Assembly (NCBI GenBank): GCA_965231215.1 | Contig: OZ246423.1 | Location: 224,001 to 288,000 of the forward strand | From: Candidatus Altimarinota bacterium | Lineage (GTDB): Bacteria > Patescibacteriota > Gracilibacteria > UBA4473 | Reading direction: 5' to 3' | Length of the DNA stretch: 64,000 nt | Part shown: piece after piece, positions 16,901-24,933 of the stretch | How the letters are laid out: the number at the start of each line of letters is the position of its first letter | How positions within the stretch are numbered: the first letter of the stretch is position 1 | Program-made: the position numbers and the translations under genes | Notes under the pieces: model-generated | Seen by the model: only the letters and a program-made list of their open reading frames with translations | Database searches by the model: none | Told to the model about the DNA's origin: nothing

Positions 16901-18307
16901 ATGAGACATACAAAAATCGTTGCGACCCTCGGCCCAGCCTCCTCTAGTTATGAACAAATTGAAGCTCTCGCTAATGCTGGAGTCGATGTATTTAGACTCA
17001 ATTTTTCTCATGGGAGTCACGAGAGCCAAGGAGCACTCATAAAAAAAATAAAAAGGCTCAATCAAAAAAACGCCAAGAACTGTGCCATTATGCTTGATAC
17101 TAAAGGGCCAGAAATACGAACCGAAGACATGAAATCTCCTATCACTGTCAAAAAAGGAGAACGCATCACGCTCACCGTAGACGGAAAACCTTTTGAAGAA
17201 ACTGGGAAAATTGGAATAAATTACGATGAATTTATTGATGATGTCGAAGTAGGAGAAAAAATTTTAGTGGATAGTGGAGTCCTTAACCTCAAAGCCTTAG
17301 AAAAAACAGAGACGGACGTAATCTGTGAGGTTTTAGATGGAGGGGAAATTTCTTCACGTCGACACGTAAATCTTCCAGGAAGAGATGTATCACTTGAATC
17401 AATTACCAAAAAAGATTGGCACGATATAGATTTTGGGATTGAAATGGGAATCGATATGATTGCACTTTCCTTTGTACGAAAATCAGACGAAGTTTATGAA
17501 CTCAAAGAATATTTAAAATCAAAAAACGCCAGCAATATTGAAGTCATGTCCAAAATTGAGAGCTTCGAAGCCACTAAACATCTTGGAACCATTTGTGAAG
17601 CCTCAGACGGTATTATGGTTGCTCGTGGGGATCTTGGAGCCGAAGTTCCTTTTGAAGAAGTCCCAAAATTGCAAAGAGAAATTATTGATACAGCGGCCCA
17701 GTATGGAAGACCGGTGGTTGTAGCTACACACATGCTAGAATCTATGATTGAAAACCCCGTTCCAACCAGAGCCGAGGTAAGTGATGTAGGGACAGCTGTA
17801 TGGCAAAGAGCTGACGGCATTATGCTTTCTGGAGAAAGCGCCAATGGAGCCTACCCAGTAAAATCAGTAGAGACCATGGTAAAAATTGCTAATACCACAG
17901 AAGAACAATACTTGAATGTTCGCCCTATGAAAGACCTTCCCGCTATTAGCCCTCGAGGAGTCTTTGGCAAAACCGCCTGTCAAATGGCCGCAACGATGCC
18001 TGAGATTAAGGCTATTGTAGTCATTACCCGTAGTGGAACTACTGCCAAACTCGTCGCGAAATTTAGACCGAAAGTTCCTATTTTTGCCTTTACTAATGAG
18101 CCCCCTACAAGAAGAAAATTACAACTCGTATGGGGATGTGAAGGCTTTAGAATTGAATTTTCTTCAACTCCGCAAACCACTATTATGCGCGCCCGGGAGG
18201 CTTTCCTAAAACGATACCCAGAGTGGAAAGGCAAAAAATATGTACTCGTTTCTGACTTCCTTGTAGATAAAGAATTTGTACCAACCCTCCAAATCCGAGA
18301 GTTCTAG
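16901..18307 (+). CDS. pyk: Pyruvate kinase
   Basis: TKIVATLGPAS, RLNFSHG, DTKGPEIRT, KIES, MVARGDLG, ATHMLESM, MLSGESA. Confidence 0.97.
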   Translation: MRHTKIVATLGPASSSYEQIEALANAGVDVFRLNFSHGSHESQGALIKKIKRLNQKNAKNCAIMLDTKGPEIRTEDMKSPITVKKGERITLTVDGKPFEETGKIGINYDEFIDDVEVGEKILVDSGVLNLKALEKTETDVICEVLDGGEISSRRHVNLPGRDVSLESITKKDWHDIDFGIEMGIDMIALSFVRKSDEVYELKEYLKSKNASNIEVMSKIESFEATKHLGTICEASDGIMVARGDLGAEVPFEEVPKLQREIIDTAAQYGRPVVVATHMLESMIENPVPTRAEVSDVGTAVWQRADGIMLSGESANGAYPVKSVETMVKIANTTEEQYLNVRPMKDLPAISPRGVFGKTACQMAATMPEIKAIVVITRSGTTAKLVAKFRPKVPIFAFTNEPPTRRKLQLVWGCEGFRIEFSSTPQTTIMRAREAFLKRYPEWKGKKYVLVSDFLVDKEFVPTLQIREF

Positions 18308-18474
18308 TTTTTTGACTTCAAGTCTAAATATTCTATACAAGATTAGTCTAAAGTAACTAGAGCATAATTATTTAGGGAAATTTGAATTCCACCTTTATTC
18401 AAGCCTTTGATCGATGCCCTACTACATTTGCTAAAATCTTGATTTTACAGTCAAATAAGTCTAATATCCAATCA

Positions 18475-18849
18475 ATGAAAAACATTGTTATCCTGATCGT
18501 TTTCTTACTCGGGGTTGCCGCTCTGATTTACTGGCTCTGGTCCGATAATCAAGAAGAACAAACCTTTCAACAAGTGATTGAAGAATACAAAGACGATCCA
18601 GCCAAAGTCCCTGTTCGCCCTGTCCCAAGTGTAGATGAAGTAGAAATCGCTATTGATGAAAACGGACTCCTGCTCAAAAAACTCTACAATGAAGAACTCA
18701 ATATTCGAGTGACTGATAAGGAAGTAAAAGACGTAGAAGTCTTTGATGGCATCCTCACCTACTCTGAATACAGCGACCAAACCTGGAGCTTTAAGGCCGT
18801 AAACCTACTAGAATACATTGATCAATACCTTAAACCTTTAGAAGGGTAA
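18475..18849 (+). CDS. Hypothetical membrane-anchored protein
   Basis: Start moved to MKNIV at 18475; N-terminal TM helix. Confidence 0.7.
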   Translation: MKNIVILIVFLLGVAALIYWLWSDNQEEQTFQQVIEEYKDDPAKVPVRPVPSVDEVEIAIDENGLLLKKLYNEELNIRVTDKEVKDVEVFDGILTYSEYSDQTWSFKAVNLLEYIDQYLKPLEG

Positions 18850-18866
18850 GAACGTTCGAATCAAGC

Positions 18867-19035
18867 CCCGTCTATAAAAATTTAATAGAAAAAACGACGA
18901 GCGATTTGTAAAAAAATCCATGCATTGTGGAGCGAAGCGACTTTGGAATTTTTAGAATCCGAATCGCTATTTTTCTTCAATTTTTATAGAGGGTGGTCTT
19001 TTTTGGTTCGTTTTTTGACCAATCAAAAAATGAAC
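18867..19035 (+). repeat. 169-bp structured element, copy 1
   Basis: Long imperfect hairpin with apical GTGGAGCGAAGCGAC plus a 3' hairpin ending AAAAAATGAAC; aligns without gaps to 23828-23996. Confidence 0.9.
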
Positions 19036-19050
19036 TGTAAACTTTTTTCA

Positions 19051-20382
19051 ATGCGTAAGACCGCTTACAATATCGTCGTTAAATTACAGAGTACAGGCTT
19101 TAAAGCTTACTTTGTAGGGGGCTGCGTAAGAGATTTGTTATTGGGTATAGAGCCCAAAGATTTTGATATAGCCACCGAGGCTTTACCTGAGCAAATAGAA
19201 GCCCTCTTTGAAAAAACCTACGACGTTGGAAAAAAATTTGGAATTATCCTCATAAATGAGGGTGATTTTAACTTTGAAATTGCCACTTTCAGAGACGACG
19301 GAGACTATCACGATGGCCGTAGACCTACTCAAATTCACTTTAGTACTCCAGAAAAAGACGCCCTACGCAGAGACTTTACCATCAATGGAATTTTTTACGA
19401 TCCCTGCAACGATGAATACTTAGATTTTGTAGGTGGAAAAAAAGATCTCAAAAATAAAATTCTTAGATTTATTGGAGATCCTGAAAGTCGAATACGCGAA
19501 GATTTTTTAAGAATTATGCGAGCCATAAGATTTAAAAATAGATTTAATTTGAAGTATGAGAATCAAACTGGAAAAGCCTTAAAAAACCATGCTGCATTAG
19601 TGACCAATATTGCAGCCGAAAGACTGTTCGATGAATTGAACAAAATAATTATTCACAAATCAAGAGCCAATGCCCTAGAAGAGTGCTATGAGTTCGGTAT
19701 TTTAGCTAAACTTTTCCCTGAAGTAGACGATATGGAGTGGACCCATCAGCCAAAAGATCATCACATGGAAGGCGATGTCCTCTCTCATACCTTCTTAGTA
19801 CTCCAAAATATGGAGGAAGGTCTAGATCCCGCTGTATATTGGGCAGCATTCTTTCATGATTACGCCAAACCTAGCACCAAAAAGTTTAGTGATGGTCAAT
19901 GGCGTTTCCCAGACCATGATGATAAAGTTTTAGACCTGGTTAAGCCTCTTCTTAAAAACCTCAAATTCCCGAAAAAACTGGCTGATAAAATTTTATGGTT
20001 ACTGAGATATAAACAAATCTTTGAAACTTTTTGGAACATGAAACTTTCTCGGAGGCTCCACTATTATGACCATCCATACTTTTTAGACCTGTGGAGATTA
20101 GAAATGGCAGACCTAAATGGTTCAATTCCAGAAGACCAAAAAACCAAAGAAGAAGCTATAAGAGTTATGAACCTCATTAAAGACAACTACCAATACGCTC
20201 ATAAAAAAGGCATTCTTCCCTCCTCCCAACCAGAACTTCTCACCGGTGAAGAAATTATGAAAATTACTGGGCTCCCTGCTGGCAAACGTATTGGCGAACT
20301 CAAAACCGGACTAAAAGACCTGCAAATTGAAGGCCAAATTACGACTCGGAAACAGGCTGAGAAATGGCTGCAAGATCAATAA
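19051..20382 (+). CDS. cca: Class II tRNA nucleotidyltransferase (CCA-adding family) with HD-like domain
   Basis: VGGCVRDLLLG, DFDIAT, DALRRDFTIN, EDFLRIMRAIRF, ERLFDEL, FHD. Start moved to 19051, downstream of the repeat. Confidence 0.88.
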   Translation: MRKTAYNIVVKLQSTGFKAYFVGGCVRDLLLGIEPKDFDIATEALPEQIEALFEKTYDVGKKFGIILINEGDFNFEIATFRDDGDYHDGRRPTQIHFSTPEKDALRRDFTINGIFYDPCNDEYLDFVGGKKDLKNKILRFIGDPESRIREDFLRIMRAIRFKNRFNLKYENQTGKALKNHAALVTNIAAERLFDELNKIIIHKSRANALEECYEFGILAKLFPEVDDMEWTHQPKDHHMEGDVLSHTFLVLQNMEEGLDPAVYWAAFFHDYAKPSTKKFSDGQWRFPDHDDKVLDLVKPLLKNLKFPKKLADKILWLLRYKQIFETFWNMKLSRRLHYYDHPYFLDLWRLEMADLNGSIPEDQKTKEEAIRVMNLIKDNYQYAHKKGILPSSQPELLTGEEIMKITGLPAGKRIGELKTGLKDLQIEGQITTRKQAEKWLQDQ

Positions 20383-20383
20383 C

Positions 20384-20417
20384 AAAAAAGGGAGTGCAAA
20401 CAGCCCCCCCTTTTTTT
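20384..20417. terminator. Bidirectional intrinsic terminator
   Basis: AAAAAAGGG...CCCTTTTTTT between convergent genes. Confidence 0.65.
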
Positions 20418-20430
20418 AATAGCTTTTAAA

Positions 20431-20868
20431 CTACTTCACAATTTTCTTTCCCTCTCCACCAAAGTACGTACAGGCCCAATCAATAATCATACCAAAGATC
20501 ATCGCATCAAGCACAACCCAAAATGGGTTATTAAGTTGGTTTAGCCATTGAAAGTCAGTTTCTACCGCAAATATCGCAGCCAATTGATCATACATAGCCA
20601 GGGTAAGTATAAACCCCATCCAGGCCCCAAGAAAAGCCCCTCTAAACCACCAAGGCATATCAAAACCAAACACGGGATTTTTATCCATTACTCCAAAAAG
20701 AGCAATCATAGCCCCAGTAGTTACATACCAAGCTACAATAGTTGCTTCAAACCACAGGGTCGTATCAGGAATAATATAGCACAATAAATATACTCCGATA
20801 AGAGCTAAGAGTAGGCTAAGGGTTTTCCCTACCACCAAACGTGTAAACAATGAATTTTTCTTAAGCAT
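20431..20868 (-). CDS. Hypothetical membrane protein
   Basis: 145 aa, about 4 TM segments, C-terminal GGEG. Confidence 0.75.
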   Translation of the reverse strand: MLKKNSLFTRLVVGKTLSLLLALIGVYLLCYIIPDTTLWFEATIVAWYVTTGAMIALFGVMDKNPVFGFDMPWWFRGAFLGAWMGFILTLAMYDQLAAIFAVETDFQWLNQLNNPFWVVLDAMIFGMIIDWACTYFGGEGKKIVK

Positions 20869-20928
20869 GTGTTTTGTGTGTTAAAAAACACACTTATTCT
20901 AAGACAAACCTAGACTCAAAGCCAACCC

Positions 20929-22191
20929 TTATTTTTTCTCAATCTTTTTGAAACCCGTATACGGCCACAATACTTCTGGAATATCCACAGATCCATCCAC
21001 ATTTTGGAAGTTCTCTAAGATCGCAATCAACGGCCGCGAAGAAACAGCCGTTCCATTAAGCGCATGAGCATATTGGAGTTTGCCATCAGCATTCTTATAA
21101 CGCGTATTAAGACGACGAGTCTGAAAATCATCACAGATAGAGGTAGAGGTCATTTCTCTGTATTTACCCTGACCAGGCAGCCAGGCCTCTAGATCGTATT
21201 TTTTAGAAGCTGAAACCCCTAGATCACCACAACAGATATTTACTACTTGATAGTGAATCCCTAATTTTTGCAGGATTTCTTCTTCAATGGTTCGAAGTTC
21301 CTCATGCATGTTGGCCGAATCTTCAGCTTTACAAAAAATCACCATCTCAATTTTTTCAAACTGATGTACTCGTAAAATTCCTTTCATATCTTTTCCATAA
21401 CTTCCAGCCTCTCTTCGAAAACACGGGCTATAAGCTGCATAACGCAAAGGCCCTTTAGATAAATCTATCGTTTGTTCTGCATGAATACTTACCATTGGCA
21501 CTTCACTGGTACCAATAAGATACAAATCATCTTCCCCAGGATTTACACAATAATTTTCATCTCGATCAAAAAATCCAGTTCCCACAATGGCCTCTTTACG
21601 AGTCATAAACGGAGGAATTGTAGGGCTAAATCCTTTATTCCAGATTTCATGAAAGGCCCATAACATGAGCGCTTGCTGGAGGATAGCCAACTCATTTTTA
21701 AGGTAATAAAACCGAGCTCCAGACACTTTCGCCGCTTGCTCCATGTCCAAAAGATCAAGGTCTTCTGCCAACTCCCAGTGTTCTTTTGGTTCAAAATCAA
21801 ATGCAGGTTTTTCTCCTTCAAATCGAGCCACCTGGTTTTCTTCGTCACTTTTTCCATCTGGAACTTCTTCTCTCGGAGGGTTTGGGAGCTTGTATAAAAT
21901 TTCTTCAAAAACGCTCTCTACTTTTTCTAGATCCACCTCTAAAGCCTTTCTTTTATCTGAAATAACCTTCATATCAGAGAGAACTTTTTCTTTTTCTTCA
22001 CCACTAAGGCTTGGAATGCGTTTAGAAACCCCATTTTGCTCGGCCTTTAAAGCCTCTGTCTGCGCAAGCAGGCCTCGCCTCTTTTCATCGGCTTCAAGTA
22101 ACTCATCTACCATTGACGACGACACCCCTTTTCGTCCAAGACGAAGTTTAAAATCTTCGGGGTTTTCGCGAATGGCTTTGAGATCAAGCAT
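20929..22191 (-). CDS. serS: Serine--tRNA ligase
   Basis: MLDLKAIREN, GTSEVP, FRREAG, RVHQFEKIE, KYDLEAW, LNGTA. Confidence 0.97.
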   Translation of the reverse strand: MLDLKAIRENPEDFKLRLGRKGVSSSMVDELLEADEKRRGLLAQTEALKAEQNGVSKRIPSLSGEEKEKVLSDMKVISDKRKALEVDLEKVESVFEEILYKLPNPPREEVPDGKSDEENQVARFEGEKPAFDFEPKEHWELAEDLDLLDMEQAAKVSGARFYYLKNELAILQQALMLWAFHEIWNKGFSPTIPPFMTRKEAIVGTGFFDRDENYCVNPGEDDLYLIGTSEVPMVSIHAEQTIDLSKGPLRYAAYSPCFRREAGSYGKDMKGILRVHQFEKIEMVIFCKAEDSANMHEELRTIEEEILQKLGIHYQVVNICCGDLGVSASKKYDLEAWLPGQGKYREMTSTSICDDFQTRRLNTRYKNADGKLQYAHALNGTAVSSRPLIAILENFQNVDGSVDIPEVLWPYTGFKKIEKK

Positions 22192-22361
22192 GGCTAAAAA
22201 ATTATAAAAAATACAACAATCATTTTTTACTAAAAAAACCACACAAATCAACTGTTCCCAATTAAGTTTTAATGGTATAGTTTTTTCTTATAAAATATTT
22301 GACGTTTTTATATAAATATTATAAAATAAATCTTAATCTAAATGAGAAACCACATCTAATA

Positions 22362-23813
22362 ATGAGTATAAGCCAGAAAGACAAAGCCATAGCCCTTATC
22401 CGTCGTGCAGAACGCATTCTCTGTGTTACTAAAAGTGACCCACGAGAAGATGGTATGGTGTGCGTAGTAGCCGCTGAACAATTGGGCCAAAGACTACAAA
22501 AAGAAACCGTTGCTATCTTGCCTGAAGGCATCAGTACACAATTAGAATTCCTCACTAATGGAAGTGAAATTCATAAAGAACTCGGAGAAAAAGGCGATTT
22601 TGTGATTTCTTTATCAACAGAAAATGCCAATGTAGAACGCGTTAAATACACTATTGAAGAAGAATCTGTAGATATTCTTATTACTCCAAAATCAGGAAAC
22701 TTTAGTGACAAAGATGTATATTTCAAACACAACACGGCCAAATTTGACCTAATTTTAGTCTTTGATGCTCCTAACCTAGAAAGTTTAGGCTCTATCTTTA
22801 GTGATAACACAGAGCTTTTTGCTCAATGCCCAACCGTAAATATTTCAGCCGAATCTACCACAGAAGATTTTGCCAAAATCAATTTAATTGATCCAACTAA
22901 GTCTTCCAGCACCGAAATCTTTTATGACCTTATTGAGAGCGACCATAATTTCAAAGAAGCTTTGGATGAAGACCTCGCCACAACCCTCCTGACAGGGATC
23001 ATTGCCAGTACTGGCAGTTTTTTAGAAACCAACACCACTACTTCTAGCTTTGAAGCCGCTAGCCATCTGCAAGAAATAGGAGCCCGGCAATCAGACATCA
23101 TTGAATACCTCTTTAAAAGAAAATCTTTTGCTACTCTCAAACTTTGGGGAAGAATCTTCAGCCAGCTCCAGCTAGATCCAGTACATCGTATCACTTGGTC
23201 AAAACTATCTCAAAGTGACCTTAATGAAGCCGACGCGAATGACAAAGACGTCGATCGTATTAGTGATGAAATCCTCAGATTCACAGAACATGCAGAAATT
23301 TCAGTTCTCTTCGTAGAGCAGAAAAATCAAATTTTGGCACAACTCAGAACCCAAAACCAAAACATAGACTGGTCTGAAATTACTGAAAACAAAGACTACA
23401 AAATAGCAGAAAAAGGAATTGACCTGATATTTACCAATGAAAGTCTGGCCGAAGTTGAAGTAGATCTAATGCACGAAATCCTCGATTTTCAACAGCAGAG
23501 ACACCATCTTGAAACAGACCAACCACTTCAAACTTTAGCCCCAAAGTCAAAAAAAGAAACCGATACGCTTCATACAGCATTCCCTATGAAACTAAAGACT
23601 AAAAAAGAAGCAAAAAAAGTGAAACCTACCCCCCCCGCAGAAATTCCTTTTGTGGCTCCCAATCAACCACACGAAGTAACCGGTAAAGTAGAAACTCACA
23701 AAACTCCAGATCAAGACACTCCACCAGGCACTCAAGCGGCAGAGGTAATCATTGATACCCAGAAAAAAGGGATTCCTGATTGGTTGAAAAAGTCTTTCCC
23801 AGACAATCAATAA
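22362..23813 (+). CDS. Degenerate DHH-family (NrnA-like) protein
   Basis: DHH fold landmarks (FDLILVFDAP, SSTEI, ATTLLTGII..TGSF, LKLWGR) without the catalytic DxD/DHH; Pro-rich tail. Confidence 0.75.
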   Translation: MSISQKDKAIALIRRAERILCVTKSDPREDGMVCVVAAEQLGQRLQKETVAILPEGISTQLEFLTNGSEIHKELGEKGDFVISLSTENANVERVKYTIEEESVDILITPKSGNFSDKDVYFKHNTAKFDLILVFDAPNLESLGSIFSDNTELFAQCPTVNISAESTTEDFAKINLIDPTKSSSTEIFYDLIESDHNFKEALDEDLATTLLTGIIASTGSFLETNTTTSSFEAASHLQEIGARQSDIIEYLFKRKSFATLKLWGRIFSQLQLDPVHRITWSKLSQSDLNEADANDKDVDRISDEILRFTEHAEISVLFVEQKNQILAQLRTQNQNIDWSEITENKDYKIAEKGIDLIFTNESLAEVEVDLMHEILDFQQQRHHLETDQPLQTLAPKSKKETDTLHTAFPMKLKTKKEAKKVKPTPPAEIPFVAPNQPHEVTGKVETHKTPDQDTPPGTQAAEVIIDTQKKGIPDWLKKSFPDNQ

Positions 23814-23827
23814 TATTCCGAATATTT

Positions 23828-23996
23828 CCCGTTTGGAAATTTTTATAAGAAAAATTCACGAATAGTTCGTCAAAAAGTCTTTGCATCGTGGAGCGAAGCG
23901 ACTTTAGACTTTTTAGAACTTGAGTGATTATTTTTCTAAAAAATTTCCACAGGGTGGCCTTTTTTGGTTTGTTTTTTGGCCATGTAAAAAATGAAC
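23828..23996 (+). repeat. 169-bp structured element, copy 2
   Basis: About 75% identical (hand count) to 18867-19035 with compensatory stem changes. Confidence 0.9.
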
Positions 23997-24055
23997 AGAA
24001 AGACTTCCTAAAAACGCAATTTTGTGATATAATATTCCATTAAACAAATAAAAAC

Positions 24056-24358
24056 ATGTACGACTTTAACCTCCTACCTCGACTTATCAAAGAATCTGAA
24101 GCCCTTTCAGACGAAGAAAAGCGAAAACTTACTCTCGCACTTCCCCAAATGCCAGATTCTCAAAAAGCAGAACTCTACGACATTCTAAAAAATGAACAGG
24201 AACAACGATACGCTATAAATCAAAACCTAAATGCTCAAAGAAAAGAATACGAAACCAAACGAGCTAAAGTAATTTACAGCTATATCGAAAGAAAAGTAGG
24301 TGAGGAAGAAGAATCTACCCTTGAGGATATCGACAATGAGTTAGCCCTCATTGATTAA
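24056..24358 (+). CDS. Hypothetical helical protein
   Basis: 100-aa ORF preceded by a TG-n-TATAAT promoter-like site. Confidence 0.7.
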   Translation: MYDFNLLPRLIKESEALSDEEKRKLTLALPQMPDSQKAELYDILKNEQEQRYAINQNLNAQRKEYETKRAKVIYSYIERKVGEEEESTLEDIDNELALID

Positions 24359-24381
24359 TATTAATTTTTAAAAACCAAAAA

Positions 24382-24933
24382 ATGGTACAACATAGAGGAC
24401 CCGAATACCAAAACAATGCACCACAGAGTGATGCTGAACATCTAGGAAAAATCATAGATCTAAACGTTGCTGCAAAAAACGTTCAAGGCCAAAGGCCTAA
24501 ACCAGGTAAAACCGAACTAGAAGGTCAATACCCTGGGCTATTTGGAAATAAAGATGGAAGAAAAATTAATGGGGCAATTGTAAAACGAGGTGAATCTCTC
24601 ACTGGAGGACACGGAAACACTTTCCAATACGAAGAAGGGATTAGCGCCAAAAATGCAGCTGAAGACAGACAAGAAGCTGCAAGGCTCAATGTAAAACGAA
24701 TGGAAGAAGCTCAACAGATTGAAAAAGAAACAGATGAGCTTGAAGCCCGAGCCCTAGAAGCTGAAAAAGAAGTAACTAACTCTGCAGCAATTCCCACAGG
24801 GGCGCCTGAGGCTGATGAAGTAGCTTCTCTAGATAAAGAATTCCAAAACCATCAAGCTGAAGCTGCAAAAGGTCATTCTGACGTTACTGCTGGTACTAGA
24901 GGTGCCTTAGAAGACTCAAGCGTAGGTGTTTAA
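24382..24933 (+). CDS. Hypothetical hydrophilic protein
   Basis: 183-aa Ala/Glu-rich ORF followed by a terminator. Confidence 0.7.
   Translation: MVQHRGPEYQNNAPQSDAEHLGKIIDLNVAAKNVQGQRPKPGKTELEGQYPGLFGNKDGRKINGAIVKRGESLTGGHGNTFQYEEGISAKNAAEDRQEAARLNVKRMEEAQQIEKETDELEARALEAEKEVTNSAAIPTGAPEADEVASLDKEFQNHQAEAAKGHSDVTAGTRGALEDSSVGV

Follow-up and report, generated by a model that had tools for sequence, protein, structure and literature searches.

An apparently undescribed family of folded intergenic repeats with a predicted pseudoknot tail in bacteria of the candidate phyla radiation

The 64,000-nt stretch of a Candidatus Altimarinota bacterium genome analysed here (the window; contig OZ246423.1, positions 224,001 to 288,000) carries two copies of a folded intergenic element, copy A at 18867–19035 and copy B at 23828–23996, both on the + strand. 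They belong to an apparently undescribed family of such elements that is present in many bacteria of the candidate phyla radiation (CPR). Each copy consists of a long irregular hairpin followed by a short tail, and we read the element, with a probability of about 40% and from sequence comparison, as an RNA structure at gene ends that has spread as a repeat. The first-pass annotation of the window had noticed the two copies and their paired arms; the pseudoknot-type tail, a fixed orientation relative to GC skew and the phylum-wide spread go beyond it.

Both copies measure 169 nt and align without gaps at 75.1% identity, with exactly 42 differences where about 42 had been counted by hand; random gap-free pairs of 169-nt windows used as a control gave an identity of 26% ± 3.6% and a maximum of 41%. 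In a joint consensus fold of 56 base pairs, 10 pairs were changed on both sides and kept paired, 4 were changed on one side, 42 were unchanged and none was broken, with 24 of the 42 differences falling within base pairs. This bears out the claim that the arms stay paired despite the changes, and the arm pairs quoted in its favour, the conserved apex and the conserved tail were all as noted when checked against the two sequences. Folding gave −54.7 kcal/mol for copy A (z −5.6) and −53.1 kcal/mol for copy B (z −5.3), and none of 200 shuffled sequences was as stable in either case. The copies begin 17 nt (A) and 14 nt (B) after the stop codon of an upstream + strand open reading frame (ORF), within the 20 nt reported.

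The genome holding the window is closed (1,326,059 bp, 39.9% G+C), and BLAST and nhmmer detected further copies in it. A covariance model search across this and other CPR genomes, which the first-pass annotation had proposed, widened the family considerably. The model, R1, was built from eight copies of the own genome and gave 16 sense-strand matches there with E-values no higher than 5e-6, along with others that are weaker or cover the tail only; copies A and B scored 183.3 and 192.6 bits. Together with the nhmmer matches, the R1 matches make up the 21 places of this genome that were examined for context. Among relatives, R1 matched 16 of 41 genomes at E up to 0.01, the own genome included, with hits in 4/4 other members of the genus and 11/24 genomes of the family; at E up to 1e-4, again counting the own genome, samples of 151 genomes each from the class and the phylum gave 14 and 7 genomes with a match. 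One family of 0.6–0.7-Mb genomes carried one or two copies in each of the four genomes sampled, with different neighbouring genes in each. Copy number ranges from 1 to about 16 per genome with a patchy distribution, and the element is about 170–190 nt long. Since R1, used for all searches, holds own-genome copies only and is biased toward the own-genome variant, and since the large searches were strictly filtered, these distribution counts are lower bounds.

A comparison with Rfam had also been suggested, as a match to a described family would speak against a new one. Rfam 15 returned only five tRNAs for the whole window at gathering scores, and at E up to 5 no match overlapped an element in seven loci with copies from six genomes, so the element did not turn out to belong to a family described there. 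A description of it is likewise absent from the parts consulted of the literature searched, PMC4736985 included, in main texts exclusive of supplementary files. What appears undescribed in the sources searched is the pseudoknot or triplex tail, the conserved asymmetric loops, the orientation relative to GC skew and the presence across CPR lineages.

The hairpin part spans about 127 nt, at 18867–18993 in copy A (as judged by folds and covariation) and 23828–23954 in copy B (by fold and the joint consensus), and closes at its base with CCC/GGG. Its outer and middle stems are wholly different between copies yet paired. Conservation lies in the internal loops, namely a GA/GA tandem, a CGUAAAA / UUUAG loop and the sequences YUGUYUGA and GAGUUU that flank the apical hairpin at the top. 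By sequence reading, the apex of copy A (18930–18940) comprises GA, the apical mini-hairpin GCGAAGC (18932–18938) and GA. GCGAAGC is a very stable DNA mini-hairpin and had been singled out as a notable feature on that account. The apical hairpin is GCGAAGC in the own genome and GGGCAAAGCCC, UCCCGCUUUGCGGGA, GUUAUUACACAGUAAUAAC or others, all self-complementary, elsewhere; because it varies among genomes, GCGAAGC is a local variant and the conserved feature is its flanks.

In an alignment of 46 copies, which was fitted to model R1 itself, 90.1% of cells were paired against 66.2% in shuffles, 40 of 44 pairs were changed on both sides, and the covariation score reached 0.483 against 0.134 in shuffles and 0.10 or less for slid partners. 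That the hairpin structure is under selection, as the first-pass annotation had proposed along with a covariation check on more copies, is strongly supported. Two known motifs were considered for the top of the hairpin and rejected. A kink-turn at the apex loop fails, by eye, on the strands beside the GA/GA pairs, which lack the required C-stem. The hammerhead ribozyme core CUGANGA ... GAAA does not occur, the motif here being CUGUYUGA, the hairpin and GAGUUU, and hammerhead models gave no match up to an E-value of 5.

The sense strand is the better-folding strand. When both strands of 42 copies were folded, the sense strand was more stable in 33, with a mean difference in folding free energy of −5.9 kcal/mol (Wilcoxon p 5e-6). 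G-U pairs numbered 233 on the sense strand vs 142 on the complement in these copies, and the pairs of the model include 89 G-U vs 48 A-C.

The tail reads, in order, S1a, a first U-run (U1), a short linker with arm X, a second U-run (U2), a loop starting with S1b, an A-run and arm X′, and the tail hairpin forms by pairing of X–U2 with A–X′. In copy A, the 5′ strand of S1, TGGTC (18994–18998), complements the loop of the tail hairpin. It is followed by U1 (18999–19004), the proposed third strand or pseudoknot loop 1, and by the linker, arm X (GGTTCG) and U2 (together 19005–19016), which form the 5′ strand of the tail hairpin according to the fold and to helix 8, 93.8% paired. The 3′ strand of S1, GACC (19017–19020), stands within the tail-hairpin loop by the same S1 complementarity, and the A-run with arm X′ (AAAAAATGAAC; 19025–19035) forms the 3′ strand of the hairpin by fold and covariation. 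The tail of copy B (23955–23996) comprises S1a TGGCC, U1 (23960–23965), GGTTTG, U2 (23972–23977), S1b GGCC (23978–23981), the A-run (23986–23991) and TGAAC.

The tail arms covary, even inside one genome (GUUCG/UGAAC, GUAC/GUAC, CCCCC/GGGGG, GGGAC/GUCCC, GCUAC/GUAGC). S1 covaries too: the bases just 5′ of U1 complement the tail loop as GGUC/GACC, GGCC/GGCC, UGACC/GGUCA or GUCGCC/GGCGAC, with GGCAG/CUGUC, GGCAG/CUGCC, GGUAG/CUAUC and GGCGC/GCGUC as further variants. The best S1 helix averaged 3.83 pairs vs 2.98 ± 0.125 with the loop swapped between genomes (0/2000 controls as high), and at least 3 pairs in a fixed register were found in 34 of 54 distinct tails, with 23 pair types. Tails were parsed sequence by sequence; a MAFFT alignment of the 54 tails is out of register for column-wise pair counts. 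The three runs are also linked in length: U1, U2 and the A-run are equal in 43 of the 54 tails (31 at 6,6,6; 9 at 5,5,5; 2 at 4,4,4; 1 at 7,7,7), and U1 equals the A-run in 44 vs 27.1 ± 2.6 after shuffling of U1, with 0/10000 shuffles reaching 44; as the tail sequences are related to each other, these statistics overstate independence. Tails of the 5,5,5 and 6,6,6 types are both present inside single genomes. At locus L041, where the A-run is AAAGAAAA, U2 UUUUCUUU and U1 UUUCUUUU, a C stands opposite the G of the A-run in both the Watson-Crick register (U2) and the parallel Hoogsteen register (U1).

By its strand order, we read the tail as an H-type pseudoknot in which U1 would cross the groove of the U-A helix, and formation of a U.A-U (C+.G-C) triple helix is probable. 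The linker between S1b and the A-run measures 0 nt in one family, 2 nt in genome G003 and 3–4 nt in the own genome; with 0–2 nt, S1 and the full tail hairpin may alternate in those lineages. One G003 locus, L127 (G003:C28:1409-1657), carries an extra hairpin-forming insert of ~45 nt between U2 and the 3′ strand of S1, with the S1 complementarity kept (UCGCC/GGCGA).

The orientation of the element follows GC skew. In the own genome the skew switches at ~0.665 and ~1.285 Mb: the + strand is G-rich between these points and C-rich over the rest, across position 0. The strong matches lie on the + strand in the C-rich part (14/14) and on the − strand in the G-rich part (2/2), and five weaker or tail-only places obey the same rule. 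The copies are dispersed from 33 kb to 883 kb with no array, and 19 of the 21 places lie in one replichore (33–604 kb), where the skew is stronger (about −0.11 vs +0.05). In a second closed genome, G004, the skew was sampled and is negative between 0.23 and ~0.9 Mb and positive over the remainder, across position 0; there, 5/5 matches obey the rule. Measured in 3-kb flanks, the sense-strand skew was negative in 23 of 26 loci of other genomes; in a second locus set it was negative at short range in 11 of 19 matches (10 of 17 full-length ones), and over 14–20 kb the sense strand was C-rich in 15 of 18 loci, the exceptions being G096, G146 and G026.

In the usual reading of GC skew, the C-rich strand is the lagging strand in sequence, that is, the leading-strand template. 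Combined with the skew data, this makes the sense strand of the element the leading-strand template. In the own genome the reading gains support from the G-rich strand, which carries 24 of the 36 tRNA/tmRNA genes and 331 of the 634 long ORFs. Three landmarks complicate it: both the 16S gene and the L2 operon are found on the C-rich strand, and dnaA, at 1.106 Mb, is remote from either skew switch. DnaA-box clusters that might mark an origin were not found by a simple pattern search of this genome.

Orientation is not set by neighbouring genes. According to crude ORF calls, the upstream gene is co-oriented with the element at 12 of the 21 own places, opposite at 8 and unclear at 1, and the downstream gene is co-oriented at 13, opposite at 6 and unclear at 2. 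In 24 loci of relatives, the upstream and downstream genes are co-oriented and opposite in 10, both co-oriented in 7 and both opposite in 6, and one locus has no upstream ORF. A co-oriented stop codon stands shortly before the element in 12/21 own copies and 17/24 relative loci. There is a mild preference for the position after a co-oriented gene, and the skew rule is much stronger.

Copies also come and go. Gene order around copies A and B is kept in the four other genomes of the genus (47–64% protein identity for the two flanking proteins searched), and no element was found beside those orthologous genes in these four genomes (best E-values 0.28 and 0.33). By this empty-site comparison, of the sort put forward in the first-pass annotation, copies are gained or lost on time scales that are short relative to gene order. 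What occupies the G003 site orthologous to copy A, about 70 nt in length, is an ordinary hairpin-plus-T terminator together with a TGCTATAAT box. Tail arms and apex are shared within most genomes and differ between genomes, and in G011 the tail arms differ internally. Contigs of three DNA runs over 17800–24900 of the window were either identical to it or short tail matches from other organisms, and they held no variants and no empty site; a look for RNA runs over 18300–24400 returned none.

If the element acts as RNA at gene ends, it would be transcribed as the 3′ end or an intercistronic part of neighbouring messages, and the long hairpin and the tail would form a compact end structure. The bases before U1 would pair with the loop of the U-run/A-run hairpin into an H-type pseudoknot, and U1 would probably occupy the groove of the U-A helix, forming U.A-U triples of the type known from MALAT1 and other carriers of the expression and nuclear retention element (ENE). 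Such a structure could stop or cap transcripts and shield them from 3′-to-5′ exonucleases, with the conserved internal loops serving as protein or tertiary contact sites. Copies would arise via duplication or insertion into intergenic DNA near gene ends, and their orientation might stem either from selection against a stable fold on an exposed lagging-strand template or from insertion coupled to the replication fork. We favour RNA because of the frequent G-U pairs, the tandem G.A loops, the pseudoknot with its likely U.A-U triplex and the position after stop codons in place of a plain terminator; the GA/GA loops are conserved, as is the motif UGA and GAG around the variable hairpin.

A number of observations weigh against this. 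The base of the hairpin lies 3–6 nt before the U-run, a poor geometry for an intrinsic terminator, and apical triloops such as a C-G-closed GAA are met more typically in DNA hairpins. A co-oriented upstream gene is missing in 8/21 own and 6/24 relative loci, and the element is antisense to both neighbours in 2 own copies and 6 relative loci, so that transcription of many copies would depend on read-through or on a dedicated promoter. If GC skew is read in the usual way, the element would be transcribed head-on to replication, and an orientation that is fixed by replication and independent of genes is not expected of an RNA element. Where the linker is 0 or 2 nt, S1 and the full tail hairpin probably cannot coexist. 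Copy L041 also fits an antiparallel U1/A pairing shifted by one base, and in the degenerate copy L132 Cs in U1 face a pure A-run, a caveat for the triplex.

The first-pass annotation had offered a non-coding RNA family or a non-autonomous mobile element of single-stranded DNA (ssDNA) as alternatives. The ssDNA element is the main rival to our RNA reading, somewhat less probable than it and with the odds against it. It would act as a folded strand in the manner of doublets of repetitive extragenic palindromic (REP) sequences that form hairpins (REPINs) or of palindrome-associated transposable elements (PATEs), moved or copied by an HUH protein like the REP-associated tyrosine transposases (RAYTs), or by another host enzyme, at the replication fork. 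The strand rule and the patchy multi-copy distribution would then be accounted for: orientation goes with GC skew and not with genes (16/16 in the own genome, 5/5 in G004, 15/18 loci over 14–20 kb), copy number runs from 1 to about 16, and A and B are missing at syntenic orthologous sites. Arms and apex, mostly uniform per genome and different between genomes, look as if they co-evolved with a trans factor. Triloop apices and T.A-T triplexes are feasible in DNA. The own genome encodes a single-copy RAYT-like Y1 HUH protein of 202 aa (C1:605284-605889; L077:1375-1983, − strand), directly upstream of recF and apparently in one operon with it. Its closest likeness is to REP-associated tyrosine transposases (NCBIfam REP_Tyr_transpos 60.7 bits against a cut-off of 80; Pfam Y1_Tnp 35.1 bits), and a degenerate element copy lies ~1.06 kb from the gene. 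Compensatory changes also occur in REPIN hairpins, according to the part consulted of PMC3116915. A copy beside a nuclease or transposase gene, as the first-pass annotation had thought worth looking for, is at hand in a degenerate form. Of 41 genomes, 16 have the element and 18 the gene; 9 have both, where 7 would be expected by chance, 7 have the element without the gene, 9 the gene without the element, and 16 lack both. Genome G004 has five element copies and no RAYT-like match. Behind the gene of G022 stand two copies of another short palindrome, GGAGACCGGTCTCC (L082:2105-2125 and 2195-2215), which is likelier to be the cognate REP of that enzyme than the element is. The analogy with REP/REPIN and HUH enzymes drawn earlier breaks down on its defining features, and the gene does not clearly track the element in relatives. 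Conserved termini, a GTAG/GTGG foot and a target duplication are all absent from the copies, and G-U pairs are common in them. Copies of one genome have wholly different stems, which gives no sign of a recent burst. It is the C-rich strand, read as the leading-strand template, that folds, whereas insertion sequences of the IS200/IS605 type use the lagging-strand template (PMC6006769, part consulted). A search of the own genome for TnpB (PF07282, PF01385) gave no match above cut-off. Its only reverse transcriptases are Drt3a (358.7 bits; C1:326962-328290, L119:1075-2403, + strand) and Drt3b (699.5 bits; C1:328301-330301, L120:958-2958, + strand), the pair of a type 3 defence-associated reverse transcriptase (DRT) system, and we rejected retro-mobility on the ground that no other RVT_1 genes are present. 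No partner gene is established for the element.

Three further explanations keep the element in RNA. Independent small RNA genes of ~170–190 nt with their own promoter, acting in trans or as protein-binding scaffolds, are distinctly unlikely: the complex conserved architecture, with three internal loops and a pseudoknot, does exceed what a terminator or transposon end needs, 1–2 copies are present in 4/4 sampled genomes of the 0.6–0.7-Mb family, and 5 of the 21 own copies clearly lie between divergent genes; but no conserved promoter was seen upstream of copies, neighbours differ in every genome, most copies lack a canonical terminator after the tail, and such genes are normally co-oriented with replication or unbiased, whereas here all are head-on. 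Still less probable, and highly unlikely in our view, is a cis-acting conformational switch, in which S1 and the tail hairpin would alternate and mask or expose a promoter, ribosome-binding or start region of the downstream gene. Downstream genes are functionally unrelated and lie on the other strand in 6/21 own and 16/24 relative loci, and no conserved junction resembling a ligand pocket was identified, even if S1 and the tail hairpin both covary and are sterically hard to combine at a linker of 0–2 nt. The 3′ arm in the own genome holds an AUG that opens a long ORF in 3/21 copies, but this AUG is not conserved in other genomes; a leader peptide or start codon in AAAAAAUGAAC was rejected in the same way, as the AUG mostly opens ORFs of 4–27 codons. 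The tail supplies a −35-like TTGNNN, with TAnnnT at the right spacing in about 5–7 of 15 own copies by eye; we rejected the tail as a promoter, since it is promoter-like in some own copies only and not in relatives. Elaborate intrinsic terminators, whose shared motifs would reflect common descent from a few duplicated ones, are extremely unlikely to be the whole story. The loop motifs are conserved phylum-wide, a spacer separates the stem from the U-run, 8/21 own copies have no co-oriented upstream gene, and the orientation rule and the linked lengths of the three runs would be left unexplained; what speaks for terminators is the gene-end position, the U-run after the hairpin and the simple terminator at the G003 site orthologous to copy A. 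A terminator scan called only the tail hairpin of copy A terminator-like.

Other candidates were rejected as well. An operator or regulon does not fit, as the downstream genes are unrelated and the palindrome arms covary between and within genomes, which points to structure and not to a fixed protein site. For a bidirectional terminator, an upstream A-run would have to pair with U1, and an A-run of at least 4 stands there in only 18 of 61 copies, mostly from one family. Insertion just after an existing terminator was clear in 1 of 13 upstream regions inspected. As for integron attC sites, no array and no RYYYAAC/GTTRRRY core-site pair was seen in the copies, intI itself not having been searched.

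In the window, copy A is preceded by a + strand ORF of 155 aa without a Pfam family (18382–18849) and followed by one at 19030–20382 (+) that by eye resembles tRNA nucleotidyltransferase/poly(A) polymerase and is conserved in 4/4 same-genus genomes. Copy B lies between a 504-aa ORF with only a sub-threshold DHH match (22299–23813, +) and a 100-aa ORF without a Pfam family (24056–24358, +), and TGTGATATAAT stands ~30 nt 3′ of it by sequence reading. A promoter-like TTGACC-17-TAAACT (19015–19043, +; 9/12 matches), whose −35 region is the tail of copy A, may be incidental; sites of this grade numbered 15 in the region vs 13.9 expected.

Elsewhere in the own genome, the tail motif CAAAAAATGAA occurs 24 times (16 on the + strand, 8 on the − strand). 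Some of these sites are tail-only and follow ordinary terminators, for instance at C1:530206-530276, upstream of a gene that by eye encodes a sigma factor of the extracytoplasmic function (ECF) type. A WecB/TagA-like gene (by eye; 93438–94193) has same-strand element copies on both sides, at C1:93283-93463 and 94200-94372. The RAYT-like gene has no obvious REP family of its own, and the hairpin that flanks it, CCCCTAGAGG..CCTCTAGGGG, occurs nowhere else in the genome. With the adjacent Drt3a and Drt3b genes, this CPR genome of 1.3 Mb has an anti-phage system of DRT type 3, and the local GC skew at these genes is anomalous (+0.058 at 320–340 kb). Two elements outside the window, at C1 ~153,380–153,520 (−) and 316,720–316,860 (−), follow terminators and are distinct from the one studied; with a closing stem GGGATTA..TAATCCC, a T-arm-like GGGGTTCGATAC and two mini-hairpins of the GCGAAGC type, they look like a tRNA-like or other small-RNA family.

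CPR bacteria, or Patescibacteria, have tiny genomes and almost no described non-coding elements, and on either reading, RNA or ssDNA, the model gives annotators a means to mark some 170 nt of intergenic sequence that would otherwise lack an explanation in many of these genomes. A bolder form of the RNA reading, which we consider unlikely on the sequence evidence, would make the element the first ENE-like RNA from bacteria. Its pseudoknot, with as many as six U.A-U triples, would cap transcripts and travel on a repeat that has spread among CPR/Patescibacteria and is tolerated, or inserted, in a single orientation relative to the fork. If true, a device for RNA stability would be tied to the DNA-level biology of a mobile or duplicative element of a new kind. 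An RNA role would extend triple-helix 3′-end protection to bacteria; the part consulted of a 2020 review (PMC7583470) names this device in eukaryotic, viral and transposon RNAs only, and no bacterial stability triplex. As ssDNA, the element would represent a class of repeats whose strand rule is the reverse of the one for IS200/IS605.

The element is of the kind known as structured interspersed intergenic repeats and belongs to none of its known families. The enterobacterial repetitive intergenic consensus (ERIC), BOX and Correia elements are intergenic imperfect palindromes of 100–200 nt and variable copy number, thought to fold in mRNA and affect message stability or to supply promoters. The present element has no sequence relation to them and differs in its pseudoknot-type tail, asymmetric conserved loops, single skew orientation and CPR hosts. 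With REP/REPIN-RAYT systems it shares intergenic multi-copy hairpins with compensatory changes (PMC3116915, part consulted) and a RAYT-like gene in the own genome. A REP, as defined in the part consulted of PMC6006769, is a short hairpin rich in G+C whose foot is preceded on the 5′ side by the tetranucleotide GTAG or GTGG; in the element, by contrast, the foot is YCCC..GGG, no GTAG/GTGG is conserved, and the stems are A/U-rich and over 50 bp long. REPINs have conserved inverted ends around a variable spacer, whereas here the outer arms vary and the internal loops, the apex flanks and the one-sided tail are conserved, and no phyletic link to the RAYT-like gene is apparent across the 41 genomes. 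The ends of IS200/IS605 elements, PATEs and the omega-RNA of TnpB resemble it in their one-strand hairpins, their orientation bias relative to replication and a pseudoknotted RNA at one end (PMC6006769, part consulted, with general background); the own genome differs in having no TnpB at cut-off and a Y1 gene that is RAYT-like only, and the folded strand is opposite to that reported for IS608.

The tail has its closest counterparts among RNAs. H-type pseudoknots with U.A-U major-groove triples, as in telomerase RNA and the SAM-II and preQ1-II riboswitches, show the same order of S1a, U-rich loop 1, S2a, S1b, a short loop and S2b, with an A-U-rich S2. The riboswitches bind ligands and have about two canonical U.A-U triples (PMC7583470, part consulted), whereas the element has up to six possible triples and many copies, lies beside unrelated genes and matches no Rfam riboswitch. 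The other counterpart is the ENE with its A-rich tract, as in PAN RNA of Kaposi's sarcoma-associated herpesvirus (KSHV), MALAT1/MEN-beta and plant and fungal transposable-element RNAs, whose anatomy and role as a stability element we take from the part consulted of PMC7583470 and from general background. Unlike an ENE, the element has no upper stem-loop between the U-runs, where a 5–7-nt arm pairs instead with the bases after the A-run; its linker to the A-run is 0–4 nt, its hosts are bacteria, it is joined to a 127-nt hairpin, and its triplex is a predicted one. As in an ENE, a stem, here S1, flanks two U-rich strands, a genome-encoded A-run downstream is able to pair with one of them and lie parallel to the other, the whole stands on the 3′ side of a transcription unit, and the equal length of the three strands, seen in 43 of 54 tails, agrees with such a triplex at the sequence level.

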